A DNA stretch of 64,000 nucleotides from Bdellovibrionota bacterium (GTDB taxonomy: Bacteria; Bdellovibrionota_C; UBA2361; CALJRW01): positions 19,950 to 83,949 of the forward strand of contig JBGSMD010000046.1 of the NCBI GenBank assembly GCA_041740355.1, read 5' to 3'. Below are positions 1,851 to 46,436 of the stretch, piece by piece; position 1 is the stretch's first letter, and the number at the start of each line of letters is the position of its first letter. Below the pieces are notes generated by a model. It was given only the letters and a program-made list of their open reading frames with translations. It was not told the DNA's origin and ran no database searches. The translations under genes were made by a program, and so were the position numbers.

Positions 1851-1875
1851 GAAAATCGTTTAAATAATTTAAATA

Positions 1876-1970
1876 GGAAAGTCCAAAAAGTAATTTATCT
1901 AAGTAAATTACTTTTTGGGGCTTTCTAACGCCCCGAGAGGGGATAAAAAATCATATAGTTATACTAGTCT
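1876..1970 (+). repeat. Copy A of a dispersed intergenic repeat family with an AT-rich hairpin core
   Basis: The sequence is gaaagtccaaaaagtaatttatctaagtaaattactttttggggctttctaacgccccgagaggggataaaaaatcatatagttata. It recurs near 6911, 8208, 19800 (inverted) and 52242. Confidence 0.7.
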
Positions 1971-2327
1971 GCAACGCTTATTCTTTAAGGGGAAATAATT
2001 ATCCTAAAAACCCGATAAGCGGCAAAAGCAGTACTTATCCGCCAAAGCTTTCTTGTCCGCTATAACTTGAGCGTAAGAGGAAGCGAAGGTGAATGCATTT
2101 TGACAAGCCGTTATCGAACTAATACTTACAAATGCAATCTAACAAAGACAAGCATTATAGTTGATTGCTAGAAATTAAGAAAGTTTTGGTAATAATTTAG
2201 CTTTTGGCGATTCTCGAATGAAAAATTTGCTTAATAGTGCAAATGCGTTGTAACAAATTTGTTAGTTTGACCTTCACTCAAAATCTAAACGAGGTATTAA
2301 AGAGAATGATTTTAAAAGACGCAGAAT

Positions 2328-2744: not shown

Positions 2745-3880
2745 AGTTATTACTGAGAATTTTTGTTGTTTTAGGGATTCCGGCACTTGTTGGGGTGGCC
2801 TGCTTTTTATTTCTAAGAAGCTATTTTTTTACTCCTTTTATTGAGGAGAGCGATAAAGTTTACTTAGTTGAGCTAGCGCCGGGTAGTAGTTTTCGTGCCT
2901 TTTGTGATCAATTGGAGTCAAAGGGTATTATTCGTAGTGCCTGGATGTTAGATTTTATTTCCCAAGTTAAAAAAAGTGATACGAAAATTAAAGCTGGTGA
3001 GTATCAATTATCTCCAGCAATGTCACCTCAAGATATTCTTTCTAAATTGAGTAAAGGAGAAGTCTTTAAGCGAATAGTGACGGTAAAAGAAGGAATGGAT
3101 CTTTGGCAGATTGCCAAAGCTTTGGAAGAGTCACAGATTTTAAAGGGCGCTGATTTTCTTCAATCAGTTCAAGATCGGGCGTTATTAGATCGCTTGGAAG
3201 TTACCGCTCCATCCTTGGAAGGTTATTTGTTTCCCGAGACATATCATTTTTCAGGAAAGCAGACAGCATTATCAGTGATTTGGATAATGGTGGAGCAGTT
3301 CTATAAAAAGTGGAAACCTGTTTATGATCAAAGACTAATAGAGCTAAATCTTTCTAAGCATGAAATTATTACGCTAGCTTCAATCATTGAAAAAGAATCA
3401 GGCAATAAATCCGAACAAGCACTTGTCTCCTCTGTCTTTCATAATCGTCTTCGAAGTGGCATGAAGTTAGAATCAGATCCAACTTTGGTATACGGATTGC
3501 AAAATTTTAATGGAGTAGTTCTGAACAAGCACAAAGAAACAGAGTCTCCCTATAATACTTATAAAAACTTTGGATTACCTCCTGGGCCAATTGCTAATCC
3601 TGGTCAAACGGCTATCCATGCGGCACTTTACCCAGAAGATAGTGAATTTCTATTTTTTGTTGCTAATGGCAAGGGTGGGCATAAATTTTCCACAAATCTA
3701 CGAGAGCACAATGATGCGGTACGAGATTATCGGAATATTTTAAGTCAAGCAAAACAGGCGACGCAAGTAGCGGTGGAGGAAATTGAAGCAGCAACAAAAC
3801 CAATAGATCCGCTAGTACCAACGGAATCGCCAAAGGTTGCTGATAATTTGGAGGCTAGTGAATCTCCAGCAACAAATTAA
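2738..3880 (+). CDS. mltG: Endolytic murein transglycosylase MltG (YceG family)
   Basis: There is an N-terminal TM segment and YceG motifs (EGYLFPETY, LTLASIIEKE, the conserved SDPT...). It overlaps ruvX by 7 nt. Confidence 0.85.
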   Translation: MLKLLLRIFVVLGIPALVGVACFLFLRSYFFTPFIEESDKVYLVELAPGSSFRAFCDQLESKGIIRSAWMLDFISQVKKSDTKIKAGEYQLSPAMSPQDILSKLSKGEVFKRIVTVKEGMDLWQIAKALEESQILKGADFLQSVQDRALLDRLEVTAPSLEGYLFPETYHFSGKQTALSVIWIMVEQFYKKWKPVYDQRLIELNLSKHEIITLASIIEKESGNKSEQALVSSVFHNRLRSGMKLESDPTLVYGLQNFNGVVLNKHKETESPYNTYKNFGLPPGPIANPGQTAIHAALYPEDSEFLFFVANGKGGHKFSTNLREHNDAVRDYRNILSQAKQATQVAVEEIEAATKPIDPLVPTESPKVADNLEASESPATN

Positions 3881-5856: not shown

Positions 5857-6882
5857 TTACTTGCTGGGAAAGAATCGAGCTTGAAATTTTTCTAAATCCG
5901 CAGAACTCCCAAAGTAAATCACAAGATCTCGATCGACTTGGAACACGGGAGTAATATTAACCGTAAATTCCTTTCCAGCTGTTATTCTAGGTACTCGTGA
6001 TTCTAGTAAATTTGCTAAGTGGCTAGAATCTTTAAGGCTTGCACCTGTGATTTTACTAGCAATCGTAGTGTGTGTTCCCCGGATGGCAGCTTGTTTACTG
6101 AAAGTAGTTTCTCCAATACTTTCTCTTAAGTATCTGACAAATTCTGTTTGAAGTGAATGTTGAGAACTACTGGTTTCGGTAGTTTTTGGTGGAAATATAT
6201 TTTTGATTCGCAATTCTACAACCCCTGCTGCTAACTTTACCTCTTGGAGTTGATCCTTTGTGACCTCCGGTGCACGCATTTTAGCAAGATGAGTTTTGAA
6301 ATTTAGAATATCTTGATTCTTCAGTTCGCCTGGAGAAAGCTCGATGCATTGATAATTTTTTTGGATCTTAGCATGAAGCAGGGGATCGCTTGGTTTTAAA
6401 AAGGCAATTTGCACTCCATCTGCCTCGATCCTAGCTTCTCTTAGTGGTCGGAGCTCAGCACCATTTTGGAGAGTCTTGATGCAAAATCCTTTATCTCCTT
6501 TTACAGATAATATTTCCGTTACATTTTCCTTTCCTGAAAGCAGATCGATTTGAAGCTGGCTGACAACATCATGAATATTAAGACCGTAGGCACTAACAAC
6601 TACTAATCCCTGCTGCTTTGCTAATTCTAAATAACTAGGTTTATGGACAACAACCTCAGGTTTCTCTATCGGAGGTAAATTCTTAGTTTTTAGGTCGCTG
6701 ATATAGGTGGTAAATTTTGGGGCTAGGGAATTGACGGCAGCTAGGCCTAGAGCTGCGGTAGCTACAATCGCTAAGGATTTTCTACCTGAAATTGAGCTAT
6801 TTGTGGCTCTAACTGTATCTTTAGGTAACTGTCGGAGCGATCTAGAGGTATCTCGATGTGGATCATCAAATGAGTGAGTCAT
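5857..6882 (-). CDS. Hypothetical membrane-anchored/periplasmic protein
   Basis: A 341-aa ORF with an N-terminal hydrophobic anchor (SLAIVATAALGLAAVNSLA) and no confidently recognisable domain. It is divergent from the MoxR operon. Confidence 0.5.
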   Translation of the reverse strand: MTHSFDDPHRDTSRSLRQLPKDTVRATNSSISGRKSLAIVATAALGLAAVNSLAPKFTTYISDLKTKNLPPIEKPEVVVHKPSYLELAKQQGLVVVSAYGLNIHDVVSQLQIDLLSGKENVTEILSVKGDKGFCIKTLQNGAELRPLREARIEADGVQIAFLKPSDPLLHAKIQKNYQCIELSPGELKNQDILNFKTHLAKMRAPEVTKDQLQEVKLAAGVVELRIKNIFPPKTTETSSSQHSLQTEFVRYLRESIGETTFSKQAAIRGTHTTIASKITGASLKDSSHLANLLESRVPRITAGKEFTVNITPVFQVDRDLVIYFGSSADLEKFQARFFPSK

Positions 6883-6910
6883 GATAAAACTTTGTGTGTT
6901 AATAAATATA

Positions 6911-6995
6911 GAAAGTCCAAAAAGTAATTTATGTAAGGAAACTACTTTTTTGGGCTTTCTATCCCCTGCAAGCGTAGTAAAATCATATAGTTATT
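6911..6995 (+). repeat. Copy B of the AT-hairpin intergenic repeat family
   Basis: The sequence is gaaagtccaaaaagtaatttatgtaaggaaactacttttttgggctttctatcccctgcaagcgtagtaaaatcatatagttatta. Confidence 0.7.
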
Positions 6996-7212
6996 AGAAA
7001 AAAACAAGCTACGCTATTTTATTTATACGTAATTTATTTTTTGGAATAACTATAACTGTTATTTTTATCCGTTTTAAGGAGATATCTGATCCTTTATAAT
7101 TTTTGCAGACTACCTGAACGCTTACAAACAAGGTATTATATTGTATCGATGACTTAAGTAGAAACCTTAAGTACTTTTTGTGTGAATAAATTTTCCTTAA
7201 AACCCCTAAGTT

Positions 7213-8202: not shown

Positions 8203-8207
8203 CGTAA

Positions 8208-8280
8208 AGAAAATCCAAAAAGTAATTTACGTAAGCAAATTACATAATGGGTTTTAGTATATCCCCTGCAGGAAAGTGGG
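8208..8280 (+). repeat. Copy C (degenerate) of the AT-hairpin intergenic repeat family
   Basis: The sequence is gaaaatccaaaaagtaatttacgtaagcaaattacataatgggttttagtatatcccctgcagg. It shares the cccctgcag tail with copy B. Confidence 0.55.
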
Positions 8281-8335
8281 AAAGCTAAGTTAAACTATTA
8301 TTTTTTAAGTAATATATTTTTTGTCATAACCAGCC

Positions 8336-9205
8336 ATGCCTTTGCCAGTAACTTTTACACCACAACTTTTAAGACAATTAGAGTTGCAACAATTAAAAGC
8401 GCGCAAATCATTTTTAGGATCTCGGCAGGGTGCTCACTATTCGCCTAAGCGTGGTCATGGAATTGAATTCTCTGACTTTAGGCAGTATCAGCCAGGGGAC
8501 GATCTTCGTCATATAGATTGGAATTTAGTAGCAAGATCTGAACGTTTTTATATTAAACGCTTTAGAGAAGAGCAAGATCTTTTAGTGCATTTAATTCTTG
8601 ATAATTCTGCTTCGATGTTTAGTCCGTCGACTGATAAATGGAATAGGGTTGTGGAGTTAGCCTTAGCGATTGGGTATCTTTCCAGTATGCAACAAGATCG
8701 CTTACAACTTGCTGTGCCGGGACATTTCATTGGTAAAAAATATTCTGGAAAAAACTTAGTATATAAACTCTCTGATGATTTGGCTCAAGTTCAAATCAAC
8801 TCTGCTAAAACTTTTGATGCTGATTTAAAACTTAGTTTTACGACAACAAATTTCCCAGGTGTCGCCTACTACATTTCTGATTTTTTAGATGACCCCGAAA
8901 AAATTAAAGCGAATTTTCAAACATTACTAGCTCGCAATCTTGATTTGCGAGTCATTCAAGTTCTTACTCCAGAGGAGATCACCCCACGCCTTGGAACGAA
9001 GGTCTTAGCAGTTGATAGCGAAACAGGGCAAGAAGTTCCACTCGAAGTAACAGCCAGTAATGCACCTGAATACCAACAAGCTTTTGCTAAGCATCAAAAA
9101 GATTGGCAGGACTTTTCTTATCAACGACAAATCGCTTGGTATAGTTGTGATACTAGCCAAGACTTAGCTGAGATTTGTCGCAAGATATTAGGGGTTGGAA
9201 AATGA
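8336..9205 (+). CDS. DUF58 domain protein (MoxR-partner, VWA-like)
   Basis: It contains DDLRHIDWNLVARSERFYIKRFREEQDLLVHLILDNSASM, the typical DUF58 core. It lies immediately downstream of MoxR. Confidence 0.85.
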   Translation: MPLPVTFTPQLLRQLELQQLKARKSFLGSRQGAHYSPKRGHGIEFSDFRQYQPGDDLRHIDWNLVARSERFYIKRFREEQDLLVHLILDNSASMFSPSTDKWNRVVELALAIGYLSSMQQDRLQLAVPGHFIGKKYSGKNLVYKLSDDLAQVQINSAKTFDADLKLSFTTTNFPGVAYYISDFLDDPEKIKANFQTLLARNLDLRVIQVLTPEEITPRLGTKVLAVDSETGQEVPLEVTASNAPEYQQAFAKHQKDWQDFSYQRQIAWYSCDTSQDLAEICRKILGVGK

Positions 9206-11004
9206 GCCTCGGTTTTAGCGCACCAGCTTTTTTGTTATTAGCCATTCCGGTAATTGGAGGGCTAATCTATGCTTACTTAAATCGTGGGCAAGCTAAGCGG
9301 CAGATAGTTTCTAGCACGATCATATTTAAACAACTTAAGAATCGTCCTAGTGTTCGCCAGCGTATTCAGCTTCCTTGGAGGTTTTTTTATGAACTGCTGG
9401 CGCTGTTAATCTTAGTTTTATCAATTGCCGGATTTTATTGGCAATCGCCAGGCAAATACTGGCAAGTGATTATTGATAATTCACTCAGTCTTTCTGCTAT
9501 CGCCGATGCCAGTAGTTCTAAAAATATTTTAGCTTTAAATATTGCTCAATTAAAAAATGACTATCAGTCTAGGATTCGCAATTTTTCAGGAATTAAAGTC
9601 TGTGTAACGGCGCCAAGTTTTGAGTGCTGGTCAGATGGCTTTCAGACTTGGGATGAGGTGATTTCTAAGATTGAAGATTTAAAAATTCTACCAGCAAACG
9701 ATCTTTTGGAAAGTATTTTAAGTTCACTTACAACTTCACCCGATGTTGAATTGACAGTTTATAGCGATTATTTAAGCAACAGTAAGCAATCAAACAAACT
9801 AAAGCTATCTACGGTACGAAGCGGAGGACTCGGAAATATTGCAATCACTGAAATTTTGCTTAGGCCAAATCAGACAGTTAGTGTTGGCATCCAATCTTTC
9901 GTCAGTACCCCAGTTCAAAAGAAAGTTAAACTTTACTTGCTATCGGAAATTCAAGGGAAATTAGTCTTAACAGAGAGCAAAGAAAATAGTTTTAAACTTA
10001 ATCCAGATCAAAAGATTTTTGTTGATTTTAAAATTGCCAATGATGTCCGCGCGGTTATTGCCGAAATTGACTCTGAAAATCGCAGTCCAACAGTAGACGC
10101 TATTGGTAAAGATAATATTGCTTTTCAAGTGATCAATCCGCAAGTTCAAGCTGAGGTATTATTGGTTAGCGAGCGTTCAATTAGTGAAAGTGGTTTAGCC
10201 GTGGTTTTTGATGATAAGGTAAAATTACTATCGCCGACTGAATATCAGCAAGGAGCGACCAGTTCCAAGAAATATTCACTAATAATTTTTGATAATTATA
10301 TTCCTAAGGAATTCCCAAATTCCAATCATTTGATTATTGCCAGCAATTCAGAGCCTGGAATAATACAAACAGAATTGCAAAGATCTCCCCAGATTACTAC
10401 TTGGGATAAGGAAAGTGCCTTGTTGCGATATTTAACTCCCGATAATTTCCAATTTAAAAATGTTTGGTCAGCTAAACTTCCCAGTTGGTTCCATCCGGTT
10501 ATTTCCAGCAATAATCAAATAATCTTGGCCACTGGATTTTTAGGTCAAGTTAAATCTGTTTACCTGGGATTTCCGATTTTGCCTTTGGAACAAAGTAATA
10601 ATCAAGCAATATCGATTTTAAGCTTAAATACACTTAAGTGGTTAGAAGAAACCAGCGAAGCTCCAATTTCATTTGATCGGGAGACACTGGTTTATACATT
10701 AGTAGATCAAAAATTAGTTTCAGAAATACATTCTAATCAAGCTTCTAGTTTAATCGGAATTTTTTCATCCTCGGATGGAAAGGTAAAATCATATAACGCT
10801 AAGAATTTCTACTCAGAGGAAGAGTCCAATCTGAAAGTTGTTCGGAAGATCTCGATTCCAACATTGCTTATTTCCAAAGAGTCACAATTAGCAAACAGTT
10901 CCAATCCAAATTTGAACCAGTTAATCTGGTTTGTGTTAGTAATGATGTTGGCTGCTTTATACTCACCGCTTTTCATTTTTGATAAAAAAGGAAAAGAAAG
11001 GTGA
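9202..11004 (+). CDS. BatA-N (aerotolerance regulator N-terminal) domain membrane protein
   Basis: The N-terminus MSLGFSAPAFLLLAIPVIGGLIYAYLNRGQAKRQ...LPWRFFYELLALLILVLSIAGF matches the BatA_N pattern. The ATG at 9202 removes the overlap implied by the track's start at 9175. It has a C-terminal TM segment. Confidence 0.75.
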   Translation: MSLGFSAPAFLLLAIPVIGGLIYAYLNRGQAKRQIVSSTIIFKQLKNRPSVRQRIQLPWRFFYELLALLILVLSIAGFYWQSPGKYWQVIIDNSLSLSAIADASSSKNILALNIAQLKNDYQSRIRNFSGIKVCVTAPSFECWSDGFQTWDEVISKIEDLKILPANDLLESILSSLTTSPDVELTVYSDYLSNSKQSNKLKLSTVRSGGLGNIAITEILLRPNQTVSVGIQSFVSTPVQKKVKLYLLSEIQGKLVLTESKENSFKLNPDQKIFVDFKIANDVRAVIAEIDSENRSPTVDAIGKDNIAFQVINPQVQAEVLLVSERSISESGLAVVFDDKVKLLSPTEYQQGATSSKKYSLIIFDNYIPKEFPNSNHLIIASNSEPGIIQTELQRSPQITTWDKESALLRYLTPDNFQFKNVWSAKLPSWFHPVISSNNQIILATGFLGQVKSVYLGFPILPLEQSNNQAISILSLNTLKWLEETSEAPISFDRETLVYTLVDQKLVSEIHSNQASSLIGIFSSSDGKVKSYNAKNFYSEEESNLKVVRKISIPTLLISKESQLANSSNPNLNQLIWFVLVMMLAALYSPLFIFDKKGKER

Positions 11005-11165
11005 GCGAGCAAAATCCTGTTGCAGGCAGGTTATGCCTTAGAAAACACTACAAAACCCTACGCCAATTAGCGGTGAGTATTTGTTTTGTCTTCTGCGGCG
11101 CAACTTGGCTAAAGCCAAGATTACGCGCGCCCTCCGCAAATTTCATCTGCGAAGGGTTTGTTTGG
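10957..11165 (+). ncRNA. Copy 1 of a roughly 205-nt structured element ending in an intrinsic-terminator-like hairpin. Candidate cis-regulatory RNA or sRNA
   Basis: The second copy at 34424-34621 is about 85% identical. Three stems show compensatory changes between the copies. The element ends in ccctccgcaaatttcatctgcgaaggg + ttt. The ORF 11001..11189 overlapping it is not conserved in copy 2. Confidence 0.55.
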
Positions 11166-14670: not shown

Positions 14671-15352
14671 GGTAACTTGGAATAGACGCTGTAAATTCAG
14701 TTTTATTACAATAAGAATTTTTTGGTACTTTAAGTGCTAAGCCATGTAGCAAAAATTTTGGAAATTCATTTAAATCATAATTGCTAAAAGATTTATCACT
14801 GCCATAAAGCGAGTCGCCAAGTAAAGGAATATTCAAAAAACCAGCTTGAGCACGGACTTGATGCCGACGACCAAAACAAGTCTGAGCTTTTATTAAATAA
14901 AGTTTTTTAGAAATAATTTCTTGTTCTACTGAAAATAGTGTTTCTGCATAAAGTGCTCGCGGGATAGGATCTTCCGAAATACTTATTTTTTTACTCCCCC
15001 GATAGCGAGAGTATAGATAATTTTTCACCCAGGTAGGCTGACTAATCCCTCGTTCGCTTAAAAATAAATACTCCTTGGCCAGTTGGTGATTTTTAATTTT
15101 TTCTTTAAAGAAATTAAAAGCAGGAATTGTTTTGGCAACAAGAAAGCATCCGGAAGTTTCATAATCAAGTCGTTGAAGCAAGCCACCTTCCTCGTTAATT
15201 AATAAATTTTGCGGATAAGAATTTTTTATAAACTCTGCAATTGTATTCTCTGAGTTTTTACCAAAAGTAGAATGTACTTCGGCCGGCTTATTAATTACTA
15301 AGATACTTTCATTTTCAAAGATGATTTGGTAGCCTGCCTTTTTCTTTTCCAT
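14645..15352 (-). CDS. RluA-family pseudouridine synthase
   Basis: The catalytic motif HRLDYETSGCFLVAK (HRLDxxTSG) is present. Confidence 0.85.
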   Translation of the reverse strand: MEKKKAGYQIIFENESILVINKPAEVHSTFGKNSENTIAEFIKNSYPQNLLINEEGGLLQRLDYETSGCFLVAKTIPAFNFFKEKIKNHQLAKEYLFLSERGISQPTWVKNYLYSRYRGSKKISISEDPIPRALYAETLFSVEQEIISKKLYLIKAQTCFGRRHQVRAQAGFLNIPLLGDSLYGSDKSFSNYDLNEFPKFLLHGLALKVPKNSYCNKTEFTASIPSYLAEFIKNH

Positions 15353-15853: not shown

Positions 15854-15921
15854 CTCCCCTTTTGGGACAAAGAATCTCGAGCCATTTAAACATTCTGATG
15901 TAAAATGTCCCAAAAGGGGAG
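15854..15921. terminator. Long inverted repeat between the convergent rnhA and SLT genes. Candidate bidirectional terminator
   Basis: The arm ctccccttttgggaca pairs with tgtcccaaaaggggag (16 bp) across a roughly 36-nt loop, with T/A runs on both sides. Confidence 0.5.
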
Positions 15922-19677: not shown

Positions 19678-19799
19678 CACATAAGATCTCTGGCAATATA
19701 TTTTCGAACAAAAATCCTAGAAAGTTATTAATAAAAACTTATTATATTATCCAAAAAAATTAATTGCTTATTAATAAAATAAGGTAAGCTGTTTTTTTG

Positions 19800-19890
19800 A
19801 AATAACCATGTGATTTTATTATCCCTCCGAGAGACAGGGAGTATCAAAAAGTAATTTACCTCAGGAAATTAAGAACTTAATAATGATAAC
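19800..19890 (-). repeat. Copy D of the AT-hairpin intergenic repeat family (inverted orientation)
   Basis: The reverse complement reads ...taaattactttttgatactccctgtctctcggagggataataaaatcacatggttatt, which parallels copy A (taaattactttttggggctttctaacgccccgagaggggataaaaaatcatatagttata). Confidence 0.6.
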
Positions 19891-20458
19891 GATAGTATCA
19901 TTCATTAAGCTTCTCTAGGGGGTAAGCAGGAGACAAATAGTAAACCCAACTTGAAACAGATTCGTCACTCTATGGTATATCCAAAGGCACTTTGAAGAAA
20001 TCTAATAAGTGGGACTATATATATGCAGAATTTTATATCGACTAAAGTTTATTTGAAAGTATTTTGAATTTGCGATAACTGCCTGAAATCATTACACAGA
20101 AACCAGTTCAAAGAACCACAATGATCTAAGTAGTATCGATTGAGTTAAACCTAAGCTAGCTAAGGTTAGCAATCCGCAACCTCGGTCTAGTTCTACTATT
20201 TAATAACTTTCTTAAAATAGGAAATTATCAAATAAAGAATATTACTTCTCGGGCAGTGTTAAAATTGAAGCAAAATAAAAATAGAACATTAAAGAGCATA
20301 AAGAATAACTAGATGATTCATTTTAGTTAGTTGAAATGTAAAATAACTTATTGCAAATATTTTTTAACGATGTATGTTACTGGTCAGATTCAGGTGCTAC
20401 ATTTCCAGCATTGAGTCTGGCCAATATTATTGTTCTTTTTTCGCTAATGGAGAATTAC

Positions 20459-22291: not shown

Positions 22292-22312
22292 TTTTTCTTG
22301 GAGATATATCAG

Positions 22313-22963
22313 ATGAAACTTATTAAACTGTTTCTAATTACATTTGTAGCCTTTGCCGTATCATGTGGTGACTCCACTAGAAATGATAATGGTGTTAGCT
22401 TTACTTTTTTTGGATGGTTCCAGGATGATGCTGGAGATGTTGGAGCAACTAGCGGCACTTTGCCACTGGATGGTTCTGGAATAAATAGTAATAATGTACA
22501 GCTTTTTGGAGGCTTGCAAAATAACTTAACAGGCCAGTTCATTAGAATTGAGCGAGCATTCCATAGCTATACTGTGCCAGGCAGTTCAATCAGAATTCCT
22601 GATACATCTGTTGGTGTTGCTTCGTTTGTAAGGCCACCAGTAGTAGGTACTGGTGATGCTGTTCAAAGCGGAACTACATTACCAACAAATGCTTTCACAG
22701 ATGCAGGTGCTGCTTATGCTGGAACGTCTTTAGTTCCACCATCAATTGGACAGTATATTTCTTTAAACAGATCGCAGTTACCTGAACTTCCATTTCAAAT
22801 GATTATTACTACATATTATGAAGGTGTAACATCAGGTGGTAGAAGAATTCAGTCTAACCCAATCCAATTAGAAATAGTAGTTGTTTCCGATTTAGATTTA
22901 GGTGGTGGTGCAGTAGATGAAGGCGCACCAGTAGATGAAGTGCCAGTTGAGGATCTTCCTTAA
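22313..22963 (+). CDS. Lipoprotein of unknown function
   Basis: MKLIKLFLITFVAFAVSCGD has a lipobox-like signal. The protein is Gly/Ser/Thr-rich. It lies immediately downstream of the secretin. Confidence 0.6.
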   Translation: MKLIKLFLITFVAFAVSCGDSTRNDNGVSFTFFGWFQDDAGDVGATSGTLPLDGSGINSNNVQLFGGLQNNLTGQFIRIERAFHSYTVPGSSIRIPDTSVGVASFVRPPVVGTGDAVQSGTTLPTNAFTDAGAAYAGTSLVPPSIGQYISLNRSQLPELPFQMIITTYYEGVTSGGRRIQSNPIQLEIVVVSDLDLGGGAVDEGAPVDEVPVEDLP

Positions 22964-23017
22964 TTTTAAACTTCTATATTTATAATGAATAATATTTTTT
23001 TAATAAGGAAGGCTTTA

Positions 23018-24004
23018 ATGAATAAGAAATTATTTCTAATTCTTCTTACTCTTGTTTCCATGGCAACTGTTGCCTGTAACAGTAGTAAAACAGATGAAAG
23101 TGGCGAGAGCGATTTATCATCAATTTTTGTATCGGATGATGGCAACACTGGTTCGATTGAGATCCGTTTGGATTCTAATGTAGTTCCAGTCGCCGGAACA
23201 GCAAACTTTCAAGTTACAGCAAAAGGAGCCGATGGGCAGTTAGTTGATAACGTTAGAATCGTTTGTGATACCGAAAACGATCTCAGAATTATTGAGCCTA
23301 GTTCAGGATCTTTTTTCACCGCAAGTTTTGGTTCAGCCAGTGGCGTAATTGGTTGTGAAGATACTGGTAGCTTCTTATTTGCATGTGGACTTGGTGGTGC
23401 TCAAAGAAGCATGAGAGACACTGTTCTTATTAAGTGTGAAGGAACTCGACCAATTGGTTTTGCAGGCTTTCCTGGTTCTGCCGGTGGTGGACTTGGTAAC
23501 GGGGTAACTGATGTTGGTAACGATGAAGAAGAAGACGAAGAAGGCTTTACTGTTCGTTTGACAGGCGTTGAATTCATTGAATTAGGCGGTTCAACAACAT
23601 CAATTGATATCCAACAAGGTGGAGACTGTGATGGTGATAATACTACTAACGATCCTGAACCATTTGGAGACGCATCGGTAAGATTCACTGTTAGCAATAG
23701 CACAGAACAGATCGTTCGTTATACATCTTACAGCTACGAAGTTTTAGATTTAAATGGAAGTGTTACACAAAGATCACCTGTCCTAAATCTAATCGGAGAG
23801 GCAGTCGGTGGTGGCGCAACTGGAACATTTAATGGTCTATTCGGATTTGCAGATAATGGACAGAAATTTGTACCAAGTGGATCACAGTTTAGTTCAGGTT
23901 TTAAAAACATTAGATTTACTCTATTTGGAACTCTTTCCGACGGAAGCCAGCAGAACATTACAGCTAGTCAAGCGGGTAGTTTTAATAATTTTGACAATTG
24001 CTAG
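23018..24004 (+). CDS. Lipoprotein of unknown function
   Basis: MNKKLFLILLTLVSMATVACNS is a lipobox signal. It has an acidic, Gly-rich periplasmic domain. The track start at 22985 is also possible. Confidence 0.6.
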   Translation: MNKKLFLILLTLVSMATVACNSSKTDESGESDLSSIFVSDDGNTGSIEIRLDSNVVPVAGTANFQVTAKGADGQLVDNVRIVCDTENDLRIIEPSSGSFFTASFGSASGVIGCEDTGSFLFACGLGGAQRSMRDTVLIKCEGTRPIGFAGFPGSAGGGLGNGVTDVGNDEEEDEEGFTVRLTGVEFIELGGSTTSIDIQQGGDCDGDNTTNDPEPFGDASVRFTVSNSTEQIVRYTSYSYEVLDLNGSVTQRSPVLNLIGEAVGGGATGTFNGLFGFADNGQKFVPSGSQFSSGFKNIRFTLFGTLSDGSQQNITASQAGSFNNFDNC

Positions 24005-26984: not shown

Positions 26985-27091
26985 ATTGGGATTTAAGTTT
27001 TCTCGGTTTTTAAGTGGATGTATAGCGAGTCCCAAGAGGATTTCCGTTAATGCAATTGTTTTTACGGCTAAAAAATAGCAAAGAGATTAAT

Positions 27092-27123
27092 TATGTACCC
27101 AGCGATATTTAAATATCGCTGGG
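27092..27123. other. Perfect 13-bp-arm palindrome
   Basis: acccagcgatattt aa atatcgctgggt. No T-tract follows it, so its function is unclear. Confidence 0.4.
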
Positions 27124-27204
27124 TAAAACATTATAACCAAATTAATCCCAACGGGGGTCGATTCAAACACTGTATGAAGAATACGCTGGTGATTTAATAT
27201 AGTT

Positions 27205-31508: not shown

Positions 31509-31699
31509 ATCCGATAGTGCTTAACGACTTAAATTGGGATAGTAAGTTTAATCTTCTATCAGGATTCGCAATCTGTCAGACCTTTGGTCTGGCTGAAAGT
31601 TTTTAAGGTTAAGCACTATATGTTATTGGCCTCGCCTTCGCTCGGCATAGAGTGCCTAAAGAAAGATTTTAATTTATATCGTTTGTTGCGATAGGCACT

Positions 31700-32423: not shown

Positions 32424-32496
32424 TCCCCGGTAGCTCAGTTGGTAGAGCAGTTGACTGTTAATCAATTGGTCGTAGGTTCGAGTCCTTCCCGGGGAG
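32424..32496 (+). tRNA. tRNA-Asn (anticodon GTT)
   Basis: Acceptor stem TCCCCGG/CCGGGGA, discriminator G. D-arm GCTCAGTTGGTAGAGC. Anticodon stem-loop GTTGA-CTGTTAA-TCAAT. T-loop GGTTCGAGTCC. No encoded CCA. Confidence 0.85.
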
Positions 32497-32652
32497 TTTC
32501 CTTCTTTTCTAGTCAGAGACCTAATAATTTCACTATTATTTAAGATAAATTATAGGAAGATTTTATGATAATTTTCTTATAGCTTTTAAATACTGAATCT
32601 GTTGAATTCAAACCATTGCGTGGCAGAAAGAAGCCTGGCTCTAATTTAAAAA

Positions 32653-32778
32653 TTAATACCAAGAATTGGTAGTGTTAGTAAGGTTTAGTATCGCAGCATT
32701 TTTATAGAGTGCCCACGCTCCAAGAATTGTTCCAAATGGCAAGGAAAATATTATAATAATATTACAAATTTTTGCCAT
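32653..32778 (-). CDS. Candidate 41-aa small membrane protein (MAKICNIIIIFSLPFGTILGAWALYKNAAILNLTNTTNSWY)
   Basis: A strong SD (GGGAGG) lies 6 nt upstream of the ATG. There is one predicted TM helix. It is below the ORF-track size cut-off. Coordinates are good to within 1 nt. Confidence 0.4.
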   Translation of the reverse strand: MAKICNIIIIFSLPFGTILGAWALYKNAAILNLTNTTNSWY

Positions 32779-32914
32779 CTTGTGCCTCCCAACTTTCAAC
32801 TAGAGTTGCCCGGCACGAATTTCAAAATTTCTTATTTTACAAAACAGTATTATTCCATTTCCAAAGGTTTGGTTGAGCTTATAGAAGCGTGGCACAAGAG
32901 GAATAAGAAAATAA

Positions 32915-34048
32915 TTAAGTAGGTATGGCCGATGTCTTTGGGGTGAATGGCAGATCCCAAGTATAGGCCATTATAGCAAGAGCTTGATCCACTTTTCGAC
33001 TTGAGTAATCAGTGAGTATTTGACTTGCTGAGTGGCTTGCTCCGTTCAGGAGTGCGGTTAACTCTTTTGTACGTGCTGGAAATAGATCAAGTAGAGCAAC
33101 AATTTCCGAGATGTCTTTGGCGAGTTCCGGAAGTTGAGTTTTGCCATCGACACTAGCCATTGTCTTAAATTTTTCAGCTACGGAAAAAAGTCCAAAGTGT
33201 TGGACGTCTTTGCGGCTAACAAAATCTTTTGAAATTCCTAGTTCGTCCGTCATACTTACTAGCGCAGCATAAGTATTATGATGCTTGGTGTGATAAAATC
33301 TCTGACGATAATCATTCATCCGATTTCCGATGACGCCTAGGAGCTCTTCTTTGTTAAATGTTTGAGTTTCAAAGATCTTAGCGAGTTGTGTTGCTCCTTT
33401 GATTCCTTCTGTAAAAGTCTCCGAGAAAGCCTGAATATTAATGGCATTATCCATGCTGGATTTAACTGCGTAAAGTACGGAGCGCTGTAGTCCTGGATCT
33501 TTTAAGACATCTTTTTCTATCCCAAGTTCTTTGGAGACTTCTAACACATATCCAACGACATTCCTGGCACTCTCAGGATTCATTCTTTGAAGTGAATCAG
33601 TAAGACTCCCAGCAACAATTACAACAAGATCTTTTTTAGAATATTTTGTTAAACCAAATTGATTAGCCATCTGTAAAGCAGCTTCTTTCGCCCCAGCTTG
33701 AAGTTTTGGGTCGGTGTAATCTTGGTTACTATTGATAGATCCACGATTTTCAAAATAAGTATCTTTCGCTGCATTAATTGCAGCTCTAAATTTTAGTAAT
33801 GCTGCTTCTTGCACGCGCTTATCTTTTTGCAGATAGGCAGGAACTTCTCCAGGAATGTCGATGTCTTGAGCAATAGCTTTAGATAAGATAATTGGTTCGG
33901 AATCTTTTCCTAAAAATGCGGCACGAGGTGAGCCGACTTTCGGTAATTTAAATTCTAGTGTTGAAAGATCGGTTTTGGCCTGTGAAGTTTTTGGTTCTAA
34001 TATTGCAGATGACATACAGCTAGTTAAAGATACAACTATGACCTTCAT
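32915..34048 (-). CDS. Lipoprotein of unknown function
   Basis: MKVIVVSLTSCMSSA is a lipobox. The 377-aa protein has locally higher GC than its surroundings. Confidence 0.6.
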   Translation of the reverse strand: MKVIVVSLTSCMSSAILEPKTSQAKTDLSTLEFKLPKVGSPRAAFLGKDSEPIILSKAIAQDIDIPGEVPAYLQKDKRVQEAALLKFRAAINAAKDTYFENRGSINSNQDYTDPKLQAGAKEAALQMANQFGLTKYSKKDLVVIVAGSLTDSLQRMNPESARNVVGYVLEVSKELGIEKDVLKDPGLQRSVLYAVKSSMDNAINIQAFSETFTEGIKGATQLAKIFETQTFNKEELLGVIGNRMNDYRQRFYHTKHHNTYAALVSMTDELGISKDFVSRKDVQHFGLFSVAEKFKTMASVDGKTQLPELAKDISEIVALLDLFPARTKELTALLNGASHSASQILTDYSSRKVDQALAIMAYTWDLPFTPKTSAIPT

Positions 34049-34423
34049 CTGACGATTTTTAGATTATGACTCTAAGATTTTAAGGGTTTATGGTATTCCA
34101 ACCCTATTTTCTGGAGAGAAACATTAAGACATGCTTAAAACCCTTGATTGTTCATAAGGATAGCAATTTTGCAAAAATAACATTTAATAGATTGAGTAAG
34201 TTAAAATTTGCAAAATTGCTGGCCTCGTAAAAAAAGAGGTTTTAAGCAGGTCTCACATTAAATGATGCAAGTCATGGATACTCCAATTGTCTCCCAGTTA
34301 GTACCTAGTCGCATTTAGTTTAATTGGAGTTAGATAACTTAAATCAATTAAATTCCAGATAATACAGGGTTTAAATCTAAGATCTCTAGATAGCAACTCT
34401 AAGTAAAAACCTGAATTTTATAC

Positions 34424-34621
34424 TCACCGTTTTTCATTTTTGATAAAAAATGAAAAGAAAGGTGAGCGAGCAAAATCATGTCGCAGACAGGTTTTGCCGT
34501 AGAAAACACCGCTAAACCCTACGCAAATCAGCGGTGAGTATTGGTTTCGTCTTCTACGGCGTAACTTAGCTAACGCTAAGATTACGCTCGCCCTCCACAA
34601 ATTTCATTTGCGGAGGGTTTA
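34424..34621 (+). ncRNA. Copy 2 of the roughly 205-nt structured, terminator-ending element
   Basis: It is about 85% identical to 10957-11165, including a relic of the upstream gene's last codons (LYSPFFIFDKK*). It ends in ccctccacaaatttcatttgcggaggg + ttt, which abuts the stop of the convergent VIT gene. Confidence 0.55.
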
Positions 34622-35314
34622 TAATGTGGTTCCAATCAATCTTCCCACTCCAGCAGTGACCCCCATAGCAAGAGCTCCCCAAAACATAACTCGAAATGCC
34701 CCTCTTATCAGAGATGCCCCGCCAGCATATGAGGCTAACAAGCCTAGAATCAGCAGAGTAAAGAGAGTTGAGATCGTTGTAACAAAACTTACTGAATGAG
34801 CTGAAGCAGTTAGTGCTGCTAGAATTGGCACTACCCCTCCAATAGCAAAAGCAACCGCTGAAGCAAATGCGGCTTGAATTGGGCGGGCTCTGAGCTCCTC
34901 AGTTATACCCAGTTCGTCTCTTGTATGCGCAACTAGTGCGTCTACCGCTGTTAACTGTTGCGCAACTTGCAAGGCAAGAGCGCTATCAAGTCCGCGTTTT
35001 ACATAAATTTCAGTTAGCTCTTCAAGTTCCTTCTGAGGGTCTTCTGCTAATTCTTGTTTTTCTCTATTTAAATCTGCATTTTCCGTGTCTGCCTGGGATT
35101 GTACAGAAATATATTCTCCAGCCGCCATCGATAATGCCCCAGCCACGAGTCCTGCGATTCCGGTCAGAAGAATGTCACTTTGTAAGGCGCCAGCCGCGGC
35201 AACACCTACAACAAGACTAGAGATAGAGACTACACCATCATTAGCACCTAAAACAGACGCTCTAAGCCATCCAATTCTATGTGCCCGGTGGTATTCAATG
35301 TGTTGTGAACGCAT
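34619..35314 (-). CDS. VIT1/CCC1-family (MbfA-like) iron/manganese transporter
   Basis: WLRASVLGANDGVVSISSLVVGVAAAG...GALSMAAGEYISVQSQ...ELTEIYVKRGL carries the family signatures. It is GC-richer than the surrounding genes. Confidence 0.85.
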   Translation of the reverse strand: MRSQHIEYHRAHRIGWLRASVLGANDGVVSISSLVVGVAAAGALQSDILLTGIAGLVAGALSMAAGEYISVQSQADTENADLNREKQELAEDPQKELEELTEIYVKRGLDSALALQVAQQLTAVDALVAHTRDELGITEELRARPIQAAFASAVAFAIGGVVPILAALTASAHSVSFVTTISTLFTLLILGLLASYAGGASLIRGAFRVMFWGALAMGVTAGVGRLIGTTL

Positions 35315-35674
35315 AAATAATTATTCTTTGTTAACAAAGCTGGCAGAAAGCAAACTTCAGAGCGGGGGGCTTGTAGAGCATTACAGTCATATTTCCATTT
35401 TGACATTCCAGCCAGTCAACTTACTTCCAGCAACTGATTAATTCACAAATATTTTAGTTTATAATCAGCCGCCTAAGGAAATCTTATGATAATTTTAAAT
35501 TTAGTAACCTGCCTCTAGGTTTAATTATTTTAGGATATCCTAACCAGAAAACTTTGTAGATTGAGATTTAGCCTTGAATCGATTTAAGAGTAGCCGGCCT
35601 CTCTCCACCATTAACTTCTAAGTCCTTAAGTCAATGGAGGTAAGAGACAGACTACTTCCTTATTGAAAACTGGA

Positions 35675-36265
35675 TTAAAAAACATCAGTTGGCGTTTGTG
35701 TCATTGCCCAAGTTCCCCAAGCATAGAAGTTAACACCGTTTGTTTCGTTGTAACCATATAGCGCCCCACCGTAAATTGAGGATGTCGATATGATACTACC
35801 GCCATTATCAATAGCGTTATATAAAAAATACCTATCTACTAATTGATCGTCTAGATTATTTGCCACAGCTTGATAGATACACAAGACTCCTTCTGGTGCA
35901 GTTGGGTTACTGAATGACCCGGTGCAGGTAGTATCAGCAACTTCAGGAATTACAAAGATAACTGCAGTCGGGGCTGTTTGTAGCTTAACTGGAAAGGAGA
36001 TCTGTGCAGCAGCGTAATTTTCGGTGCTTCCACCTGATAGATTCCAAACACCAGTTTGAGTTACAGGAGCCTTATTTAAATCTGTTAAGGAAGAATAACC
36101 TATTGGACAACTTGAGCTTTCTATGGTGATGAGCTTTGGTATTTTTATATTTACCTTGCCATTAACTACACTAGCTTTTTTGGAATTTTTAAGGCAGATA
36201 ATTTCTGCTTGCAAATTACTGGTTAGAATAAATAATCCTAAAGTAAGCAGTACTAAATTTTTCAT
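35675..36265 (-). CDS. Secreted hypothetical protein
   Basis: The signal peptide is MKNLVLLTLGLFILTSNLQA. The 196-aa protein contains Cys and has no recognisable domain. Confidence 0.5.
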   Translation of the reverse strand: MKNLVLLTLGLFILTSNLQAEIICLKNSKKASVVNGKVNIKIPKLITIESSSCPIGYSSLTDLNKAPVTQTGVWNLSGGSTENYAAAQISFPVKLQTAPTAVIFVIPEVADTTCTGSFSNPTAPEGVLCIYQAVANNLDDQLVDRYFLYNAIDNGGSIISTSSIYGGALYGYNETNGVNFYAWGTWAMTQTPTDVF

Positions 36266-36634
36266 TTTTATTTCCTTGAGTAAAAGATTTAGAGTTGAGG
36301 CATATGTAGAGATTTTTTCAGGTTAGATGATAGAAATAGGAAAGTAAACAAGTATTTTGACTCAAGTCATGAGGCTAAGTACCTAGCAATATGACTTTGA
36401 TCGCAAGGTAATTTTCAAATTAATTATTCAAATAGAGCCAAGCTACTTTATTCTAGTAGCTGCTATTTAGTTGTTGTATATTCTTGGTTAAAGCTCCATG
36501 TTTCGAAGCTTGTCCGCTAGGGGGAGCTTCCTTTCCTTGCTAATCAGTTAACTAAATATGGTTGACTATAGATTTCTTAAAATATCCAAATCTAGTTCTA
36601 TAATCTTGAGGTGGTTAATTGTTAAGTGGAATTA

Positions 36635-37090
36635 TTATTCCTTTATGGACTGAAATCCTAATTTTCGTTTTTTAGTTTCTATCGGTTTTTCAAGCTGAGA
36701 AATCACAAATCTGATCTCCTGTAATTCCTCGTAATGTTCAGAGAATCCTTTGGAAACTCTTTGTTCAAGAACTTGAAGTCTTCGCTTCAAATCGGTGTGT
36801 TCCTGGGTAACTTCCTTTAATTTTATAAAAACTCGTACTAGCATAATACTAGCCTGAATTGCTACTTTACTATTTAGTACGTTTGCAGCCATAACAGCTC
36901 CATACTCAGTAAAGACTCTTGGGGGTTTACGTCTTCCCCCATGTACATAACTTGAAGTCGCAATTTGCGACTTCAAGTTTGTAACTTCTTGAATAGCCAG
37001 AGAAAACATAAAGTCAGAGGGGAATCTTTCCAAGTTTCTAATAACCTGTTCGTTAAGGCGTTTCGTGATGACACCATAAAGATCAGCCAA
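36635..37090 (-). CDS. ORF6N-domain protein (mobile-element-associated DNA-binding family), lacking a canonical start codon
   Basis: LYGVITKRLNEQVIRNLERFPSDFMFSLA...HGGRRKPPRVFTEYGAVMAANVLNS matches ORF6N. The conserved N-terminal residues (...RIIIVNGQRVILDSDLADLYGV) are encoded in-frame upstream (to about 37150), with no ATG/GTG/TTG before an in-frame stop. It is either a non-canonical start or a pseudogene. Confidence 0.6.
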   Translation of the reverse strand: MADLYGVITKRLNEQVIRNLERFPSDFMFSLAIQEVTNLKSQIATSSYVHGGRRKPPRVFTEYGAVMAANVLNSKVAIQASIMLVRVFIKLKEVTQEHTDLKRRLQVLEQRVSKGFSEHYEELQEIRFVISQLEKPIETKKRKLGFQSIKE

Positions 37091-41645: not shown

Positions 41646-42575
41646 ATGCATTTCTCTTTCAAAAAACAATTACTAAATTTCTTCATTTTATTTATCTCTG
41701 CCTTTCCTGTCCAGGCTCAAGTTTTCACCCCGATAGTCGCAAATTATGAATGTGGTCAATTTCCAAATGGAGCTCAGTTTTTAGTTAGAAAAACTACTAA
41801 TGGTTTTGAGTTAGTACGAACATCTGAGGTTAAAAATATTTATAAGAAAGAACGTCGGATTATTACTCAAAGAGTTAAAACAATAAATGATGTACTTAAG
41901 GGTTTTGAGCAATCACGAATTACAAAAAAACAGCTGATTAAAGCTGCCAATAAATTAGCAAAATTTTTAGGATTGGAAGCCCTCGAACAAGATATTCCAC
42001 TAAGCGTAGCAGAGGTGGAAATTTTAAATTTTAAACAGAAATTACTAGATCGTGGTGCAATTCTTAAAACTATTGGTGAATTAATCGACGATTGCGAAAG
42101 TGGAATTAACCCAAAGCAGGGTAGGGGTACTCCAATTAGTGTTGGAATTGTACCAATATCATTAGCATCTAGTAATACTATTTACGGTGGTTTTTTAATT
42201 CATTCATCAAAATTAAAAAATGAATTTTCAACTAAACCTACAGGTTACAATGTTTGTCTTAAATTAGTATATCCAGATGGAAGTGTTGGAAGACTTTATA
42301 CTGGCTTTGGGGATGATGAAGTTTGTGGAACTGGAACAAATAAATTTGAAGGAGTCCCTCAAAGTACCTGTGATGCCTTAATGCCCTTAAAACAGGTTGG
42401 TTATGTTATTCAGAAGCGGACCTATGCTTTTACCTCCTTGCCTGATGCTACAACAGAACAACTCTTAGAAAATATGAGACTGGAAGTCTTGCAAGATCGA
42501 CCGATGGTTGGGGTGATGGCATTCACATCCAATACCTCAAGAGATAGTCAAGTGAAAGCTTGCGAGGCATTCTAA
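41646..42575 (+). CDS. Secreted hypothetical protein
   Basis: Signal peptide (FFILFISAFPVQAQ). A 309-aa protein with no recognisable domain. Confidence 0.5.
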   Translation: MHFSFKKQLLNFFILFISAFPVQAQVFTPIVANYECGQFPNGAQFLVRKTTNGFELVRTSEVKNIYKKERRIITQRVKTINDVLKGFEQSRITKKQLIKAANKLAKFLGLEALEQDIPLSVAEVEILNFKQKLLDRGAILKTIGELIDDCESGINPKQGRGTPISVGIVPISLASSNTIYGGFLIHSSKLKNEFSTKPTGYNVCLKLVYPDGSVGRLYTGFGDDEVCGTGTNKFEGVPQSTCDALMPLKQVGYVIQKRTYAFTSLPDATTEQLLENMRLEVLQDRPMVGVMAFTSNTSRDSQVKACEAF

Positions 42576-42707
42576 GCTCAACCTGAGCATGAGTTTTTTC
42601 ATCTTGTTTAGACTGTAAGAAAAAGAAAAGATCAGCTAACATGGAAAGGTCACCTAAGTAAGTAGAATTTAAATAAAGGTTACTTTTTTATAATTGAAGT
42701 TTCTCCA

Positions 42708-44159
42708 GTGCTAAGTAAGTCCTCCACCATCTTCTTTTTGATTTTTAGTCTGATTGTCTTATTGGCAGGACAGGAAGCATTCTTTGGTGATCCCTATTTA
42801 TATTGTGGATTAGTCGATCAGTGGCTCTTTCGAGGACAGGCAGGCTTGGCATTAGATTCAAATTTACTTGCGCATGCTAATAAATACGGAGTTCTAAATT
42901 CCGCATATTGCATACCTGGACTTGCAGCAAAGTATTTTGTTAGTAATTTAGAATTTTCAAAATTTGTTGTAGCGATTTGGCCAGCCTTAATTTCAATTCT
43001 TTGCGCCTTTGGATTCACAAAAGCATTATCTTTAGTACGCCAAGAGTCGAGTAATAATTGGATTTTTTCGGGATTACTCTTACTAACGACTCCGTTAATT
43101 GTATACTCTCGCAATTATTATTCCGAAATTATTCAAGCAACACTATTAATTTGGGCGTATTACTTTTGGCTGCAATTCAAAATGACCGAAGTGCCTAAGC
43201 AGCGGTATTCTTTAATCAAGTTGACCTTGGCATGCTCATTATTAGTACTCTGCAAGTTATACTATCTATACTTAGTGGCCCTGCTTTTCCTAGCAATAAT
43301 CAAGGACTATCGACAAAATTATTATAGAACCATTGGCACAGTTAGTATTGCTTCACTTTGCTTTTTACCAACTGTTGCTATTTTATTGTTGAGTAATTAT
43401 TGGAAATTTGGTTCAGTAATTGGCATCGGATATAATTTGGAACGAGATCTTTCTTTGGGGTTTAATACTCCATTACTGACTGGGTTATATGGATTACTAT
43501 TTTCTAGTGGAAAAGGAATAATTTGGTATGTGCCGGTATTAATTTTACTGCCATTTTTATTAGTTAGAGACTGGCTGGCAAGACGTGAGCAGGCTTGCGA
43601 AATTTTATTCATCACTACTCCACTCTTGATAATTATAGCTAGCTGGTGGGCTTGGCATGGGGATTGGGGCTGGGCACCACGTTTAATTGTCCCATTAATT
43701 CCTTTATGGATGTTATTACTGGGATCTATAAATTATACTTCAATTGCCCAGCGTTGGTTATTCGTGGTCTTTTGTCTATTTGGTGCGTTTATTAATTTTT
43801 CTGCAGTACTTATTAGTCCCATGTACTATTTTAAAATAATGACCCAAAAGTTTGAAAGCTTATTAGTTGGGAAGGATGTTCTACAAGATGGTGGGATTCT
43901 TTTACATTATGCCCCAGACTTTAGCCCAATTAAATTTCAATTATGGGCGATTCAGTGCAAGTTAGCTGGCTCGTCATGTAATCCTAATTTACCATGGGAA
44001 TATTTAAAAATTAAAGATTTAACTCTGGAACAAGTAGCTGCTCCGCAGTGGGATCCAATTCTGTTATTTTATAATCCATCTCTTGCTTGGATAATATCAT
44101 TATTATTTCTATTGTTAGTAACATTTTTGTTACAACAATTCATGAGACATTTTAGATAA
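42708..44159 (+). CDS. Polytopic membrane protein, possibly a GT-C-fold (ArnT/PMT-like) glycosyltransferase
   Basis: About 12 predicted TM helices. A WWAWHGDWGWAPRL loop motif is reminiscent of PMT_2/ArnT-like families. The assignment is tentative. Confidence 0.5.
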   Translation: MLSKSSTIFFLIFSLIVLLAGQEAFFGDPYLYCGLVDQWLFRGQAGLALDSNLLAHANKYGVLNSAYCIPGLAAKYFVSNLEFSKFVVAIWPALISILCAFGFTKALSLVRQESSNNWIFSGLLLLTTPLIVYSRNYYSEIIQATLLIWAYYFWLQFKMTEVPKQRYSLIKLTLACSLLVLCKLYYLYLVALLFLAIIKDYRQNYYRTIGTVSIASLCFLPTVAILLLSNYWKFGSVIGIGYNLERDLSLGFNTPLLTGLYGLLFSSGKGIIWYVPVLILLPFLLVRDWLARREQACEILFITTPLLIIIASWWAWHGDWGWAPRLIVPLIPLWMLLLGSINYTSIAQRWLFVVFCLFGAFINFSAVLISPMYYFKIMTQKFESLLVGKDVLQDGGILLHYAPDFSPIKFQLWAIQCKLAGSSCNPNLPWEYLKIKDLTLEQVAAPQWDPILLFYNPSLAWIISLLFLLLVTFLLQQFMRHFR

Positions 44160-44165
44160 AGATAG

Positions 44166-46220: not shown

Positions 46221-46436
46221 TACAGTGGCTTATCAATAACTTTAACCTTACTTTCTAAGGTTAAATACCGCTGCGAATCCCTTGGGGCGCACTAAGCACT
46301 TCTTGCTTGATGTCCTTGGCAAATAAACGAAACGCTATTTTCAGTCTCATTATGTATATTTAAGTCTATATACTTAAATTTTCTTTAAAAAGGGCATTTA
46401 TTTTGCTTAAGGATTGGATTTTAATATAATTCTAGA

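Follow-up and report, generated by a model that had tools for sequence, protein, structure and literature searches.

A family of intergenic hairpin repeats in a Bdellovibrionota genome, probably a lineage-specific MITE-like element of Correia-like architecture

The 64-kb stretch of DNA analysed here, referred to as the window, carries an AT-rich hairpin that recurs in its spacers, which raises the question of whether these copies are mobile elements, RNA structures or protein-binding sites. A first-pass annotation had claimed at least five dispersed copies, and this was borne out. A profile built from the aligned window copies and two copies from another genome, searched with nhmmer against the 64-kb window, recovered exactly five copies (W1 to W5, Table 1), everything else scoring at E values of 0.02 or more, and the motif was confirmed at all five loci named in the annotation. 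The 15-mer CCAAAAAGTAATTTA, allowing at most two mismatches, occurs 11 times in the window as opposed to 0.75 times expected in shuffled sequences, and a repeat search of the window placed the copies in families D2 and D3 and in the inverted pairs I1-I5. All five copies are intergenic, in a window that is approximately 85% coding. The element is 55-150 bp long and non-coding; the sole open reading frame of at least 20 aa that lies over any copy is a 27-aa frame with a TTG start, which extends across W1 (1915-1998). The copies are clustered, and since four of the five lie within the first 20 kb, the density of 1 per 13 kb is unsafe for extrapolation. A figure of at least 100 copies per genome, which had been derived from it, is thus unsupported, a scan of one genome per species having found only two exact-core copies, in one related metagenome-assembled genome (MAG).

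An alignment of the window and MAG copies resolves a full element of about 150 bp, which consists of a hairpin (module A), a GC mini-hairpin (module B), a linker and a second long hairpin (module C). Module A is formed by TATAGAAAGTCCAAAAAGTAATTTA, a loop of 6-7 nt and TAAATTACTTTTTGGGGCTTTCTAT, and its AT-rich stem is 22-25 bp long rather than the roughly 15 bp first described. Module B is a GC stem of 4-6 bp with the sequence CCCCCGGAGGG, CCCCGAGAGGGG or CCCCTGCAGG, followed by the conserved linker ATAATAAAATCATATAGTTAT (core AAAATCATATAGTTAT). In module C, the arms ATAGTTATGACAAAAAA and TTTTTTGTCATCACTAT enclose about 30 nt including TTTACGTAATTTA. The tail ataaaatcatatagttat had been taken as the end of the element, but W2, W3 and W4 run on for about 65 nt as the second long hairpin, to about 150 bp in total, and the supposed end (...tcatatagttat) is the start of module C. 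The boundaries of the composite are TATAG...CTATA. Its terminal inverted repeats are imperfect and 30 nt long, the outer ends matching as inverted repeats at 23-24 of 33 positions (about 72%), with p values of 0.001-0.04 for the part beyond TATAG; because of this match, modules A and C look like diverged versions of one palindromic unit. A solo hairpin A is palindromic from end to end. Full copies are predicted to fold as hairpins A and C joined by the short GC stem of B, equally on either strand, with -37 to -48 kcal/mol and z scores of -4.9 to -9.5. The mobile unit is best explained as either the 55-nt palindrome, i.e., hairpin A alone, or the composite of A, B, linker and C of about 150 bp. 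A motif resembling WATCAANNNNTTR, with one mismatch, occupies the same position in the linker of five copies; this possible IHF site is only a lead, because one-mismatch motifs of this type occur with a background of about 3 per kb in the window.

Table 1. Copies of the repeat family, related hairpins and possible further elements in the 64-kb window, with the lengths of the orthologous spacers at three insertion sites.
Feature	Position	Strand	Support and structure	Spacer in window	Spacer in relatives
W1	1873-1965	+	nhmmer E 2e-23 (1876-1965); truncated/rearranged	M23 peptidase-RuvX, 478 bp	MAG L034 107 bp
W2	6906-7055	+	nhmmer E 1e-39; full composite, termini TATAG...CTATA	343-aa ORF-MoxR, 331 bp	MAG 120 bp; L025 186 bp
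W3	8203-8336	+	nhmmer E 2e-25; decayed composite	MoxR-DUF58, 133 bp	MAG 5 bp; L025 6 bp; L026, L028, L031 0-18 bp
W4	19742-19889	-	nhmmer E 3e-31 (19742-19887); full composite, reverse-oriented		
W5	52238-52295	-	nhmmer E 4e-14 (52239-52295) and inverted repeat pair I1; hairpin A alone		
Related member	52717-52776	.	TATAGTCATGATCTG...GGGATGACTATAG, 56-60-nt hairpin, -16.7 kcal/mol; nhmmer E 0.065		
Related member	53402-53463	.	ATAGTAAAGCCTAGAATGAATTTCCGAA-N7-TTCGGAAATTCCTTTCTAGGACTAT, -24.7 kcal/mol; inverted pair I17; nhmmer E 0.03		
Related member, module-C-like	58003-58086	.	arms TATAGTAATGACAAAAAATAATTTACT / AGTAAATTAAACAGAGTCATTAC, GC-rich loop; inverted pair I8		
Related member	58168-58229	.	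ATAGTGAGTCCAAG...TTTGGACTCACTAT; hairpin scan -18.8 kcal/mol		
Possible related member	31514-31619	.	106 nt, ATAGTGCTTAAC...GTTAAGCACTAT; -35.6 kcal/mol		
Possible element of about 150 nt	52540-52690	.	inverted ATAGTAAACCCAA ends, by eye; 26-nt inverted match 92% (I13)		
Possible 80-150-nt element with ATAGTAAACCCAA end	19937-20016		beside W4		

The individual copies differ in how much of this layout they retain. W1 contains hairpin A, the GC hairpin B CCCCGAGAGGGG and the linker AAAAATCATATAGTTAT, while module C is unrecognisable (-32.7 kcal/mol, z -5.8). In W2, hairpin A (about 6907-6962) is followed by a degenerate B and the linker and then by hairpin C (about 6986-7054), and the copy is predicted to fold on either strand into hairpins A and C with a short GC stem between them (-36.9 kcal/mol, z -4.9). 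W3 has a mutated right arm of A, CCCCTGCAGG as module B, no left arm of C and an altered right terminus, and the left arm of hairpin A is degenerate in W4. In W5, both ends are preserved (TATAGAAAG...CTTTCTATA); compared in reverse complement with hairpin A of W2, this copy shows 93% identity, and it folds with -19.3 kcal/mol (z -7.9). Regarding orientation, only the copy at 19800-19890 had been described as reversed; W4 is indeed reversed, but W5 also aligns best in reverse. The divergent and same-strand contexts described earlier were likewise recovered, W1 and W2 being located in divergent spacers, 22-23 nt upstream of the start codons of the divergent genes, and W3, W4 and W5 in same-strand spacers, where W3 occupies the entire moxR-DUF58 spacer and W4 lies 64 nt downstream of mnmG. 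The convergent context did not hold, as none of the five copies is found there; only the related but different hairpin at 53402-53463 sits between convergent genes, namely sodC and attH.

The window's first 20 kb and the MAG contig JANNBC010000016 (locus L034) are syntenic, with amino acid identities of 90% for RuvX, 96% for MoxR and 87% for DUF58; two other relatives, L025 and L028, have MoxR identities of 95% and 71%. W1, W2 and W3 are insertions that are absent from the orthologous sites of the MAG and, where these were covered, of other relatives, some of them more distant (Table 1): all three are missing from L034, W2 and W3 from L025, and W3 also from L026, L028 and L031. No tested copy is conserved at an orthologous locus. 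The MAG lacks a segment of about 280 bp (about 1872-2153), of which W1 makes up the initial 93 nt. The converse case also occurs, as the CinA-M23 spacer of the MAG is 100 bp long and contains a variant hairpin, while that of the window has 39 bp and no element. A profile search of about 100 kb from five more distant relatives found no copy. Next to W2, an ORF of 341 aa (window 5857-6882, minus strand), which lies between a 651-aa gene and moxR and has no Pfam or NCBIfam match, is present in the MAG and L025 and absent at the same position in L028 and L031, and is therefore regarded as a lineage-specific gene gain. Next to the W1 segment, the upstream region of ruvX (window 2154-2187, ATTATAGTTGATTGCTAGAAATTAAGAAAGTTTT) is kept in the MAG (L034, about 9955-9990, ACTATAGTGGATTGCTGGAAATTAAGAAAGTTTT). 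This conserved stretch may include the native promoter with TATAGT as the -10 box, in which case the element termini would mimic host -10 boxes.

Sequence identities between copies were compared with those expected at neutral sites. The copies M1 and M3 within the MAG are 97% identical, W2 and W5 93%, W1 and M1 90%, and W2 and M3 83%, and W3 and W4 share about 70% identity with the other copies. Third codon positions in orthologous genes of the window genome and the MAG are 49-66% identical. Copies at non-orthologous sites thus resemble each other much more closely than neutral sites do, which points to a conserved active source lineage, or to transfer between the genomes, and to movement after the two genomes split. 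Individual copies, in turn, decay. The substitutions in hairpin A break base pairs, and a covariation test of hairpin A revealed no compensatory change, with 82.7% paired cells as opposed to 81.8% in shuffled alignments and 145 of 500 shuffles scoring as well. This behaviour fits selfish copies in decay and not a structure that is maintained at each locus.

A scan for the hairpin core was performed with one genome per species. It yielded two true loci, both full composites in the MAG OTE_78_metabat_376 (JANNBC01, GCA_031385045.1); a third, variant hairpin was found later in the same MAG, and a match in Aquimarina was discarded as a chance hairpin. A scan of JGI metagenome contigs with a relaxed core gave 20 hairpins, none with GAAAG...CTTTC flanks, and these are unrelated AT hairpins; viral contigs and phage and plasmid collections gave zero matches. 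A search of Rfam 15 with gathering and E-value thresholds returned nothing relevant to the repeats, and a tRNA and an SRP RNA elsewhere in the window; a mir-1255 match at the element was dismissed as chance (26 bits against a gathering score of 63). The closest named MoxR homologues (about 62-66% identity) belong for the most part to Bdellovibrionales, Oligoflexia and Bdellovibrionota MAGs, and the host is probably an uncultured bacterium of the phylum Bdellovibrionota. Its gene content is Gram-negative (PilQ secretin, MepM-like M23 peptidase, MltG, Cu/Zn SodC) and its G+C content is 34-39%. A full-text literature search found no report of MITEs in Bdellovibrio.

Beyond the five copies, the window contains further hairpins with other stems between the same (T)ATAG...CTAT(A) ends (Table 1). 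In the window as a whole, six stable ATAG...CTAT hairpins of at most 110 nt were counted, compared with a mean of 0.37 in shuffled sequences, and other tetramer pairs gave 0-2 at this length when overlaps with the same elements were excluded; a crude scan for any ATAG...CTAT hairpin of up to 175 nt showed no excess over shuffles. The relative L028 has a 60-nt ATAGT...ACTAT family of its own, with two copies in opposite orientation (3109-3168 and 15199-15258), one of which lies in a PhoH-CinA spacer of 181 bp, as opposed to 37 bp in L031. The hairpins in the window and in this relative point to a wider superfamily. The 13-mer ATAGTAAACCCAA has three exact copies (19937-19949, 52542-52554 and 52676-52688) and looser ones at 52772 and 53403, in every case in a spacer with hairpin elements, and may be the terminus of another subfamily. 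Several such pieces seem to have accumulated in the spacers 1872-2153 and 52121-52860.

On this basis, the repeats are most plausibly a lineage-specific family of non-autonomous transposable elements of the MITE type, with the architecture but not the sequence of Correia elements, a reading to which we assign a probability of about 0.6. The REP/MITE-like candidate among those initially proposed is supported by the insertions that are absent from orthologous sites, the terminal inverted repeats and the decay after insertion. Prokaryotic MITEs are defined as non-coding elements of 50-800 bp with terminal inverted repeats of at least 10-15 bp and dispersed, polymorphic copies, and further by a target-site duplication of 2-10 bp and a cognate autonomous IS (PMC11602168, PMC10969869). 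The window family has the size and non-coding character, the terminal inverted repeats and the dispersed, polymorphic copies of this definition. Concerning the duplication, eight of 12 elements have T...A flanks and thus read TA-TAG...CTA-TA, which fits an insertion at TA with duplication, but equally well sequence that belongs to the palindrome itself. In L025 and L034, the empty sites have diverged too far for the junctions to be resolved, and W3 shows no duplication. Neither a transposase or RAYT gene nor a full-length IS with these ends was found among the approximately 50 window ORFs and the annotated L034 genes (about 84 kb in all).

In a MITE-like mechanism, a transposase encoded elsewhere in the genome would recognise the TATAG-type ends and insert the element at AT-rich positions between genes, probably at TA, and an IHF-like bending protein may bind to the conserved linker in the centre. 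Inserted copies would not be maintained and would decay. Read-through transcripts would carry stable RNA hairpins of 22-27 bp, which are possible substrates of RNase III, and hexamers resembling a -10 box (TATAAT, TATATT or TATAAC) could arise at the junctions between element and flank. At W3, the insertion would have cost the close spacing of moxR and DUF58, which are 133 nt apart in the window as opposed to 0-18 nt in every relative. A scan of the window for promoter and terminator consensus sequences gave counts equal to those of shuffled sequences and no convincing complete promoter, and no properly spaced -35/-10 pair was visible by eye inside the element.

An alternative that is possible, although we consider it unlikely, is that the repeats are REP- or REPIN-like elements moved by a RAYT- or IS200/IS605-type HUH (Y1) enzyme, which would read the hairpin and its basal ATAG on single-stranded DNA and cause no target duplication, the element population persisting vertically together with a single-copy enzyme gene. 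The lack of a clean target-site duplication at W3 agrees with this, as does the structure of hairpin A, with its two inverted arms around a short spacer. Classical REPs have a conserved GTAG beside the palindrome; here, ATAG...CTAT is constant at the hairpin bases while the stems vary between subfamilies and genomes, and both the excess of such hairpins and the separate family of L028 are in line with such an enzyme. A constant tetranucleotide below varied stems suits HUH-type elements just as well as a MITE. The window family shares with REP, BIME and REPIN sequences the extragenic palindromes, the conserved basal tetranucleotide and doublet or composite layouts, as well as the persistence of the sequence between related species. 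REPIN populations are described as conserved in sequence without shared insertion sites (bioRxiv 10.1101/2021.07.10.451892), and the element sequence is conserved between the two species compared here with no shared insertion site among those tested. However, the AT-rich stems of 22-27 bp exceed classical REP palindromes two- to threefold in length, and the terminal inverted repeats and TA-type flanks of the composite are typical of DDE-type MITEs. A RAYT gene is usually flanked by REPs, whereas the examined window ORFs and annotated L034 genes include neither a RAYT nor a Y1 transposase. The copy number also appears low, with five clustered copies in 64 kb, two exact cores in the related MAG and no sign of high numbers.

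Both functional readings proposed initially, small RNAs and regulator sites, fared worse. If the copies were small RNA genes, or cis-acting RNA structures such as terminators or stabilisers, selection would act on them at each locus. The hairpins are predicted to be very stable whichever strand is folded (z -5 to -9), several copies are located shortly downstream of stop codons, and W1 has a terminator-like match on the minus strand. Yet no Rfam family matches, hairpin A shows broken base pairs instead of covariation, close relatives lack the copies at orthologous loci, and truncated copies occur in mixed, unrelated contexts and orientations; we regard a role of this kind as improbable. The terminator scan flagged only W1, with a total of 16 matches in the window compared with 15.6 in shuffles, and intrinsic terminators, in which a U-tract follows a GC-rich stem, were rejected as a candidate, since the T-runs lie inside the stem, only the minus strand of W1 was flagged and the count equals that of shuffled sequences. 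In the remaining reading, which we consider very unlikely, the copies are operators of a host regulator or of a nucleoid-associated protein and together form a regulon. The long palindrome is conserved in sequence beyond what pairing requires, the one-mismatch IHF-like motif has a fixed position in five copies, and W1 and W2 lie upstream of start codons at a distance of 22-23 nt. Nevertheless, a regulon is unsupported, since close relatives do not share the sites, not even at the orthologous promoters of a relative with 96% MoxR identity; other copies lie within an operon spacer or in 3' regions, the neighbouring genes have no common function, and the IHF-like motif has a background of about 3 per kb. 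Binding by a transposase or an IHF-like protein is possible. Integron attC sites, CRISPR repeats and uptake sequences were dismissed on anatomy alone.

Among described systems, the closest analogue of the proposed MITE-like family is the Correia element of Neisseria (CREE, also nemis), in architecture and not in sequence. Correia elements occur in size classes of 153-157, 104-108 and 69-73 bp, have inverted ends that begin with TATAG, continue with an A-run and form hairpins, create promoters at their junctions and show insertion polymorphism; their long forms contain an internal IHF site, and they have no known transposase (PMC2649163, PMC5039591, PMC10969869). The window family is similarly non-coding and intergenic, has long and short forms (about 150 and 55-60 bp), termini that start with TATAG and continue with an A-run, inverted ends that form long hairpins, insertion polymorphism between close genomes and -10-like hexamers at the junctions, and encodes no transposase. 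The ends were compared with the 26-bp Correia repeat TATAG[CT]GGATTAA(CAAAAA/ATTTAAA)... and, beyond TATAG, are not significantly similar, the best p value for the next 16 nt, anchored, being 0.09 without correction. The published IHF site CTTCAGCACCTTA is absent, the linker containing only the generic one-mismatch motif mentioned above. Correia elements are confined to Neisseria (PMC5039591), to which the window host does not belong. The build differs as well, as Correia elements have one core between two repeats, whereas the composite consists of two self-pairing palindromes and a GC mini-hairpin. Membership in the Correia family was rejected because the similarity of the ends is not significant beyond TATAG; the missing IHF site and the host argue in the same direction.

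There are also parallels to the pneumococcal BOX, RUP and SPRITE repeats and to ERIC, namely the modular A-B-C build with partial copies that lack modules, the clustering with possible nesting in the spacers 1872-2153 and 52121-52860, and possible effects of the hairpins on transcripts (PMC10969869). However, neither these repeats nor REP/REPIN elements share sequence with the window family, and the host phylum of the former is different; for RUP an IS630-type relative is known, and none is known for the window family. The repeats are a new, previously undescribed family of a well-known kind and not a new kind of system.

The lineage is poorly sampled. The elements mark recent changes that separate closely related uncultured genomes, and W3 provides a concrete, testable case of an element that breaks a tight moxR-DUF58 junction. 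For annotation, spacers of this type should not be read as small-RNA genes or regulator sites. That the family has TATAG ends and an architecture in common with Correia elements offers a lead on how such elements are moved, but no evidence for it. It is conceivable, though doubtful, that the ATAG...CTAT hairpins form a clade-wide class moved by an enzyme that reads the hairpin and the terminal (T)ATAG, perhaps of the same class that mobilises Correia elements. In that case, genes that co-occur with such hairpins across MAGs and Neisseria could reveal the enzyme that mobilises Correia elements.

Several other features of the window were recorded. ORFs without a Pfam family at E values of 1e-5 or better are located at 41646-47510 (309, 483, 684 and 357 aa) and 22298-24004 (221 and 339 aa). 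An unrelated repeat of 204 nt occurs at 10956-11159 and 34417-34620 with 89% identity and the inverted pair ATACTCACCGC / GCGGTGAGTAT; its first copy fills the BatA-VWA spacer, which has 182 bp compared with 30 bp in L034, and it is probably another small mobile element. The second copy lies in the region 32424-37090, together with a tRNA gene (32424-32496), a 377-aa ORF without family, a VIT-family gene and a gene for a protein with an ORF6N (KilA-N-like) domain (36635-37090), and this region may be the remnant of an integrated element. The spacer that follows the RNase H gene contains a strong palindrome (15854-15921) whose 16-nt arms (CTCCCCTTTTGGGACA / TGTCCCAAAAGGGGAG) match perfectly and are 36 nt apart, and a further strong palindrome of 46 nt, TAATTATGTACCCAGCGATATTTAAATATCGCTGGGTAAAACATTA, is found at 27088-27133.
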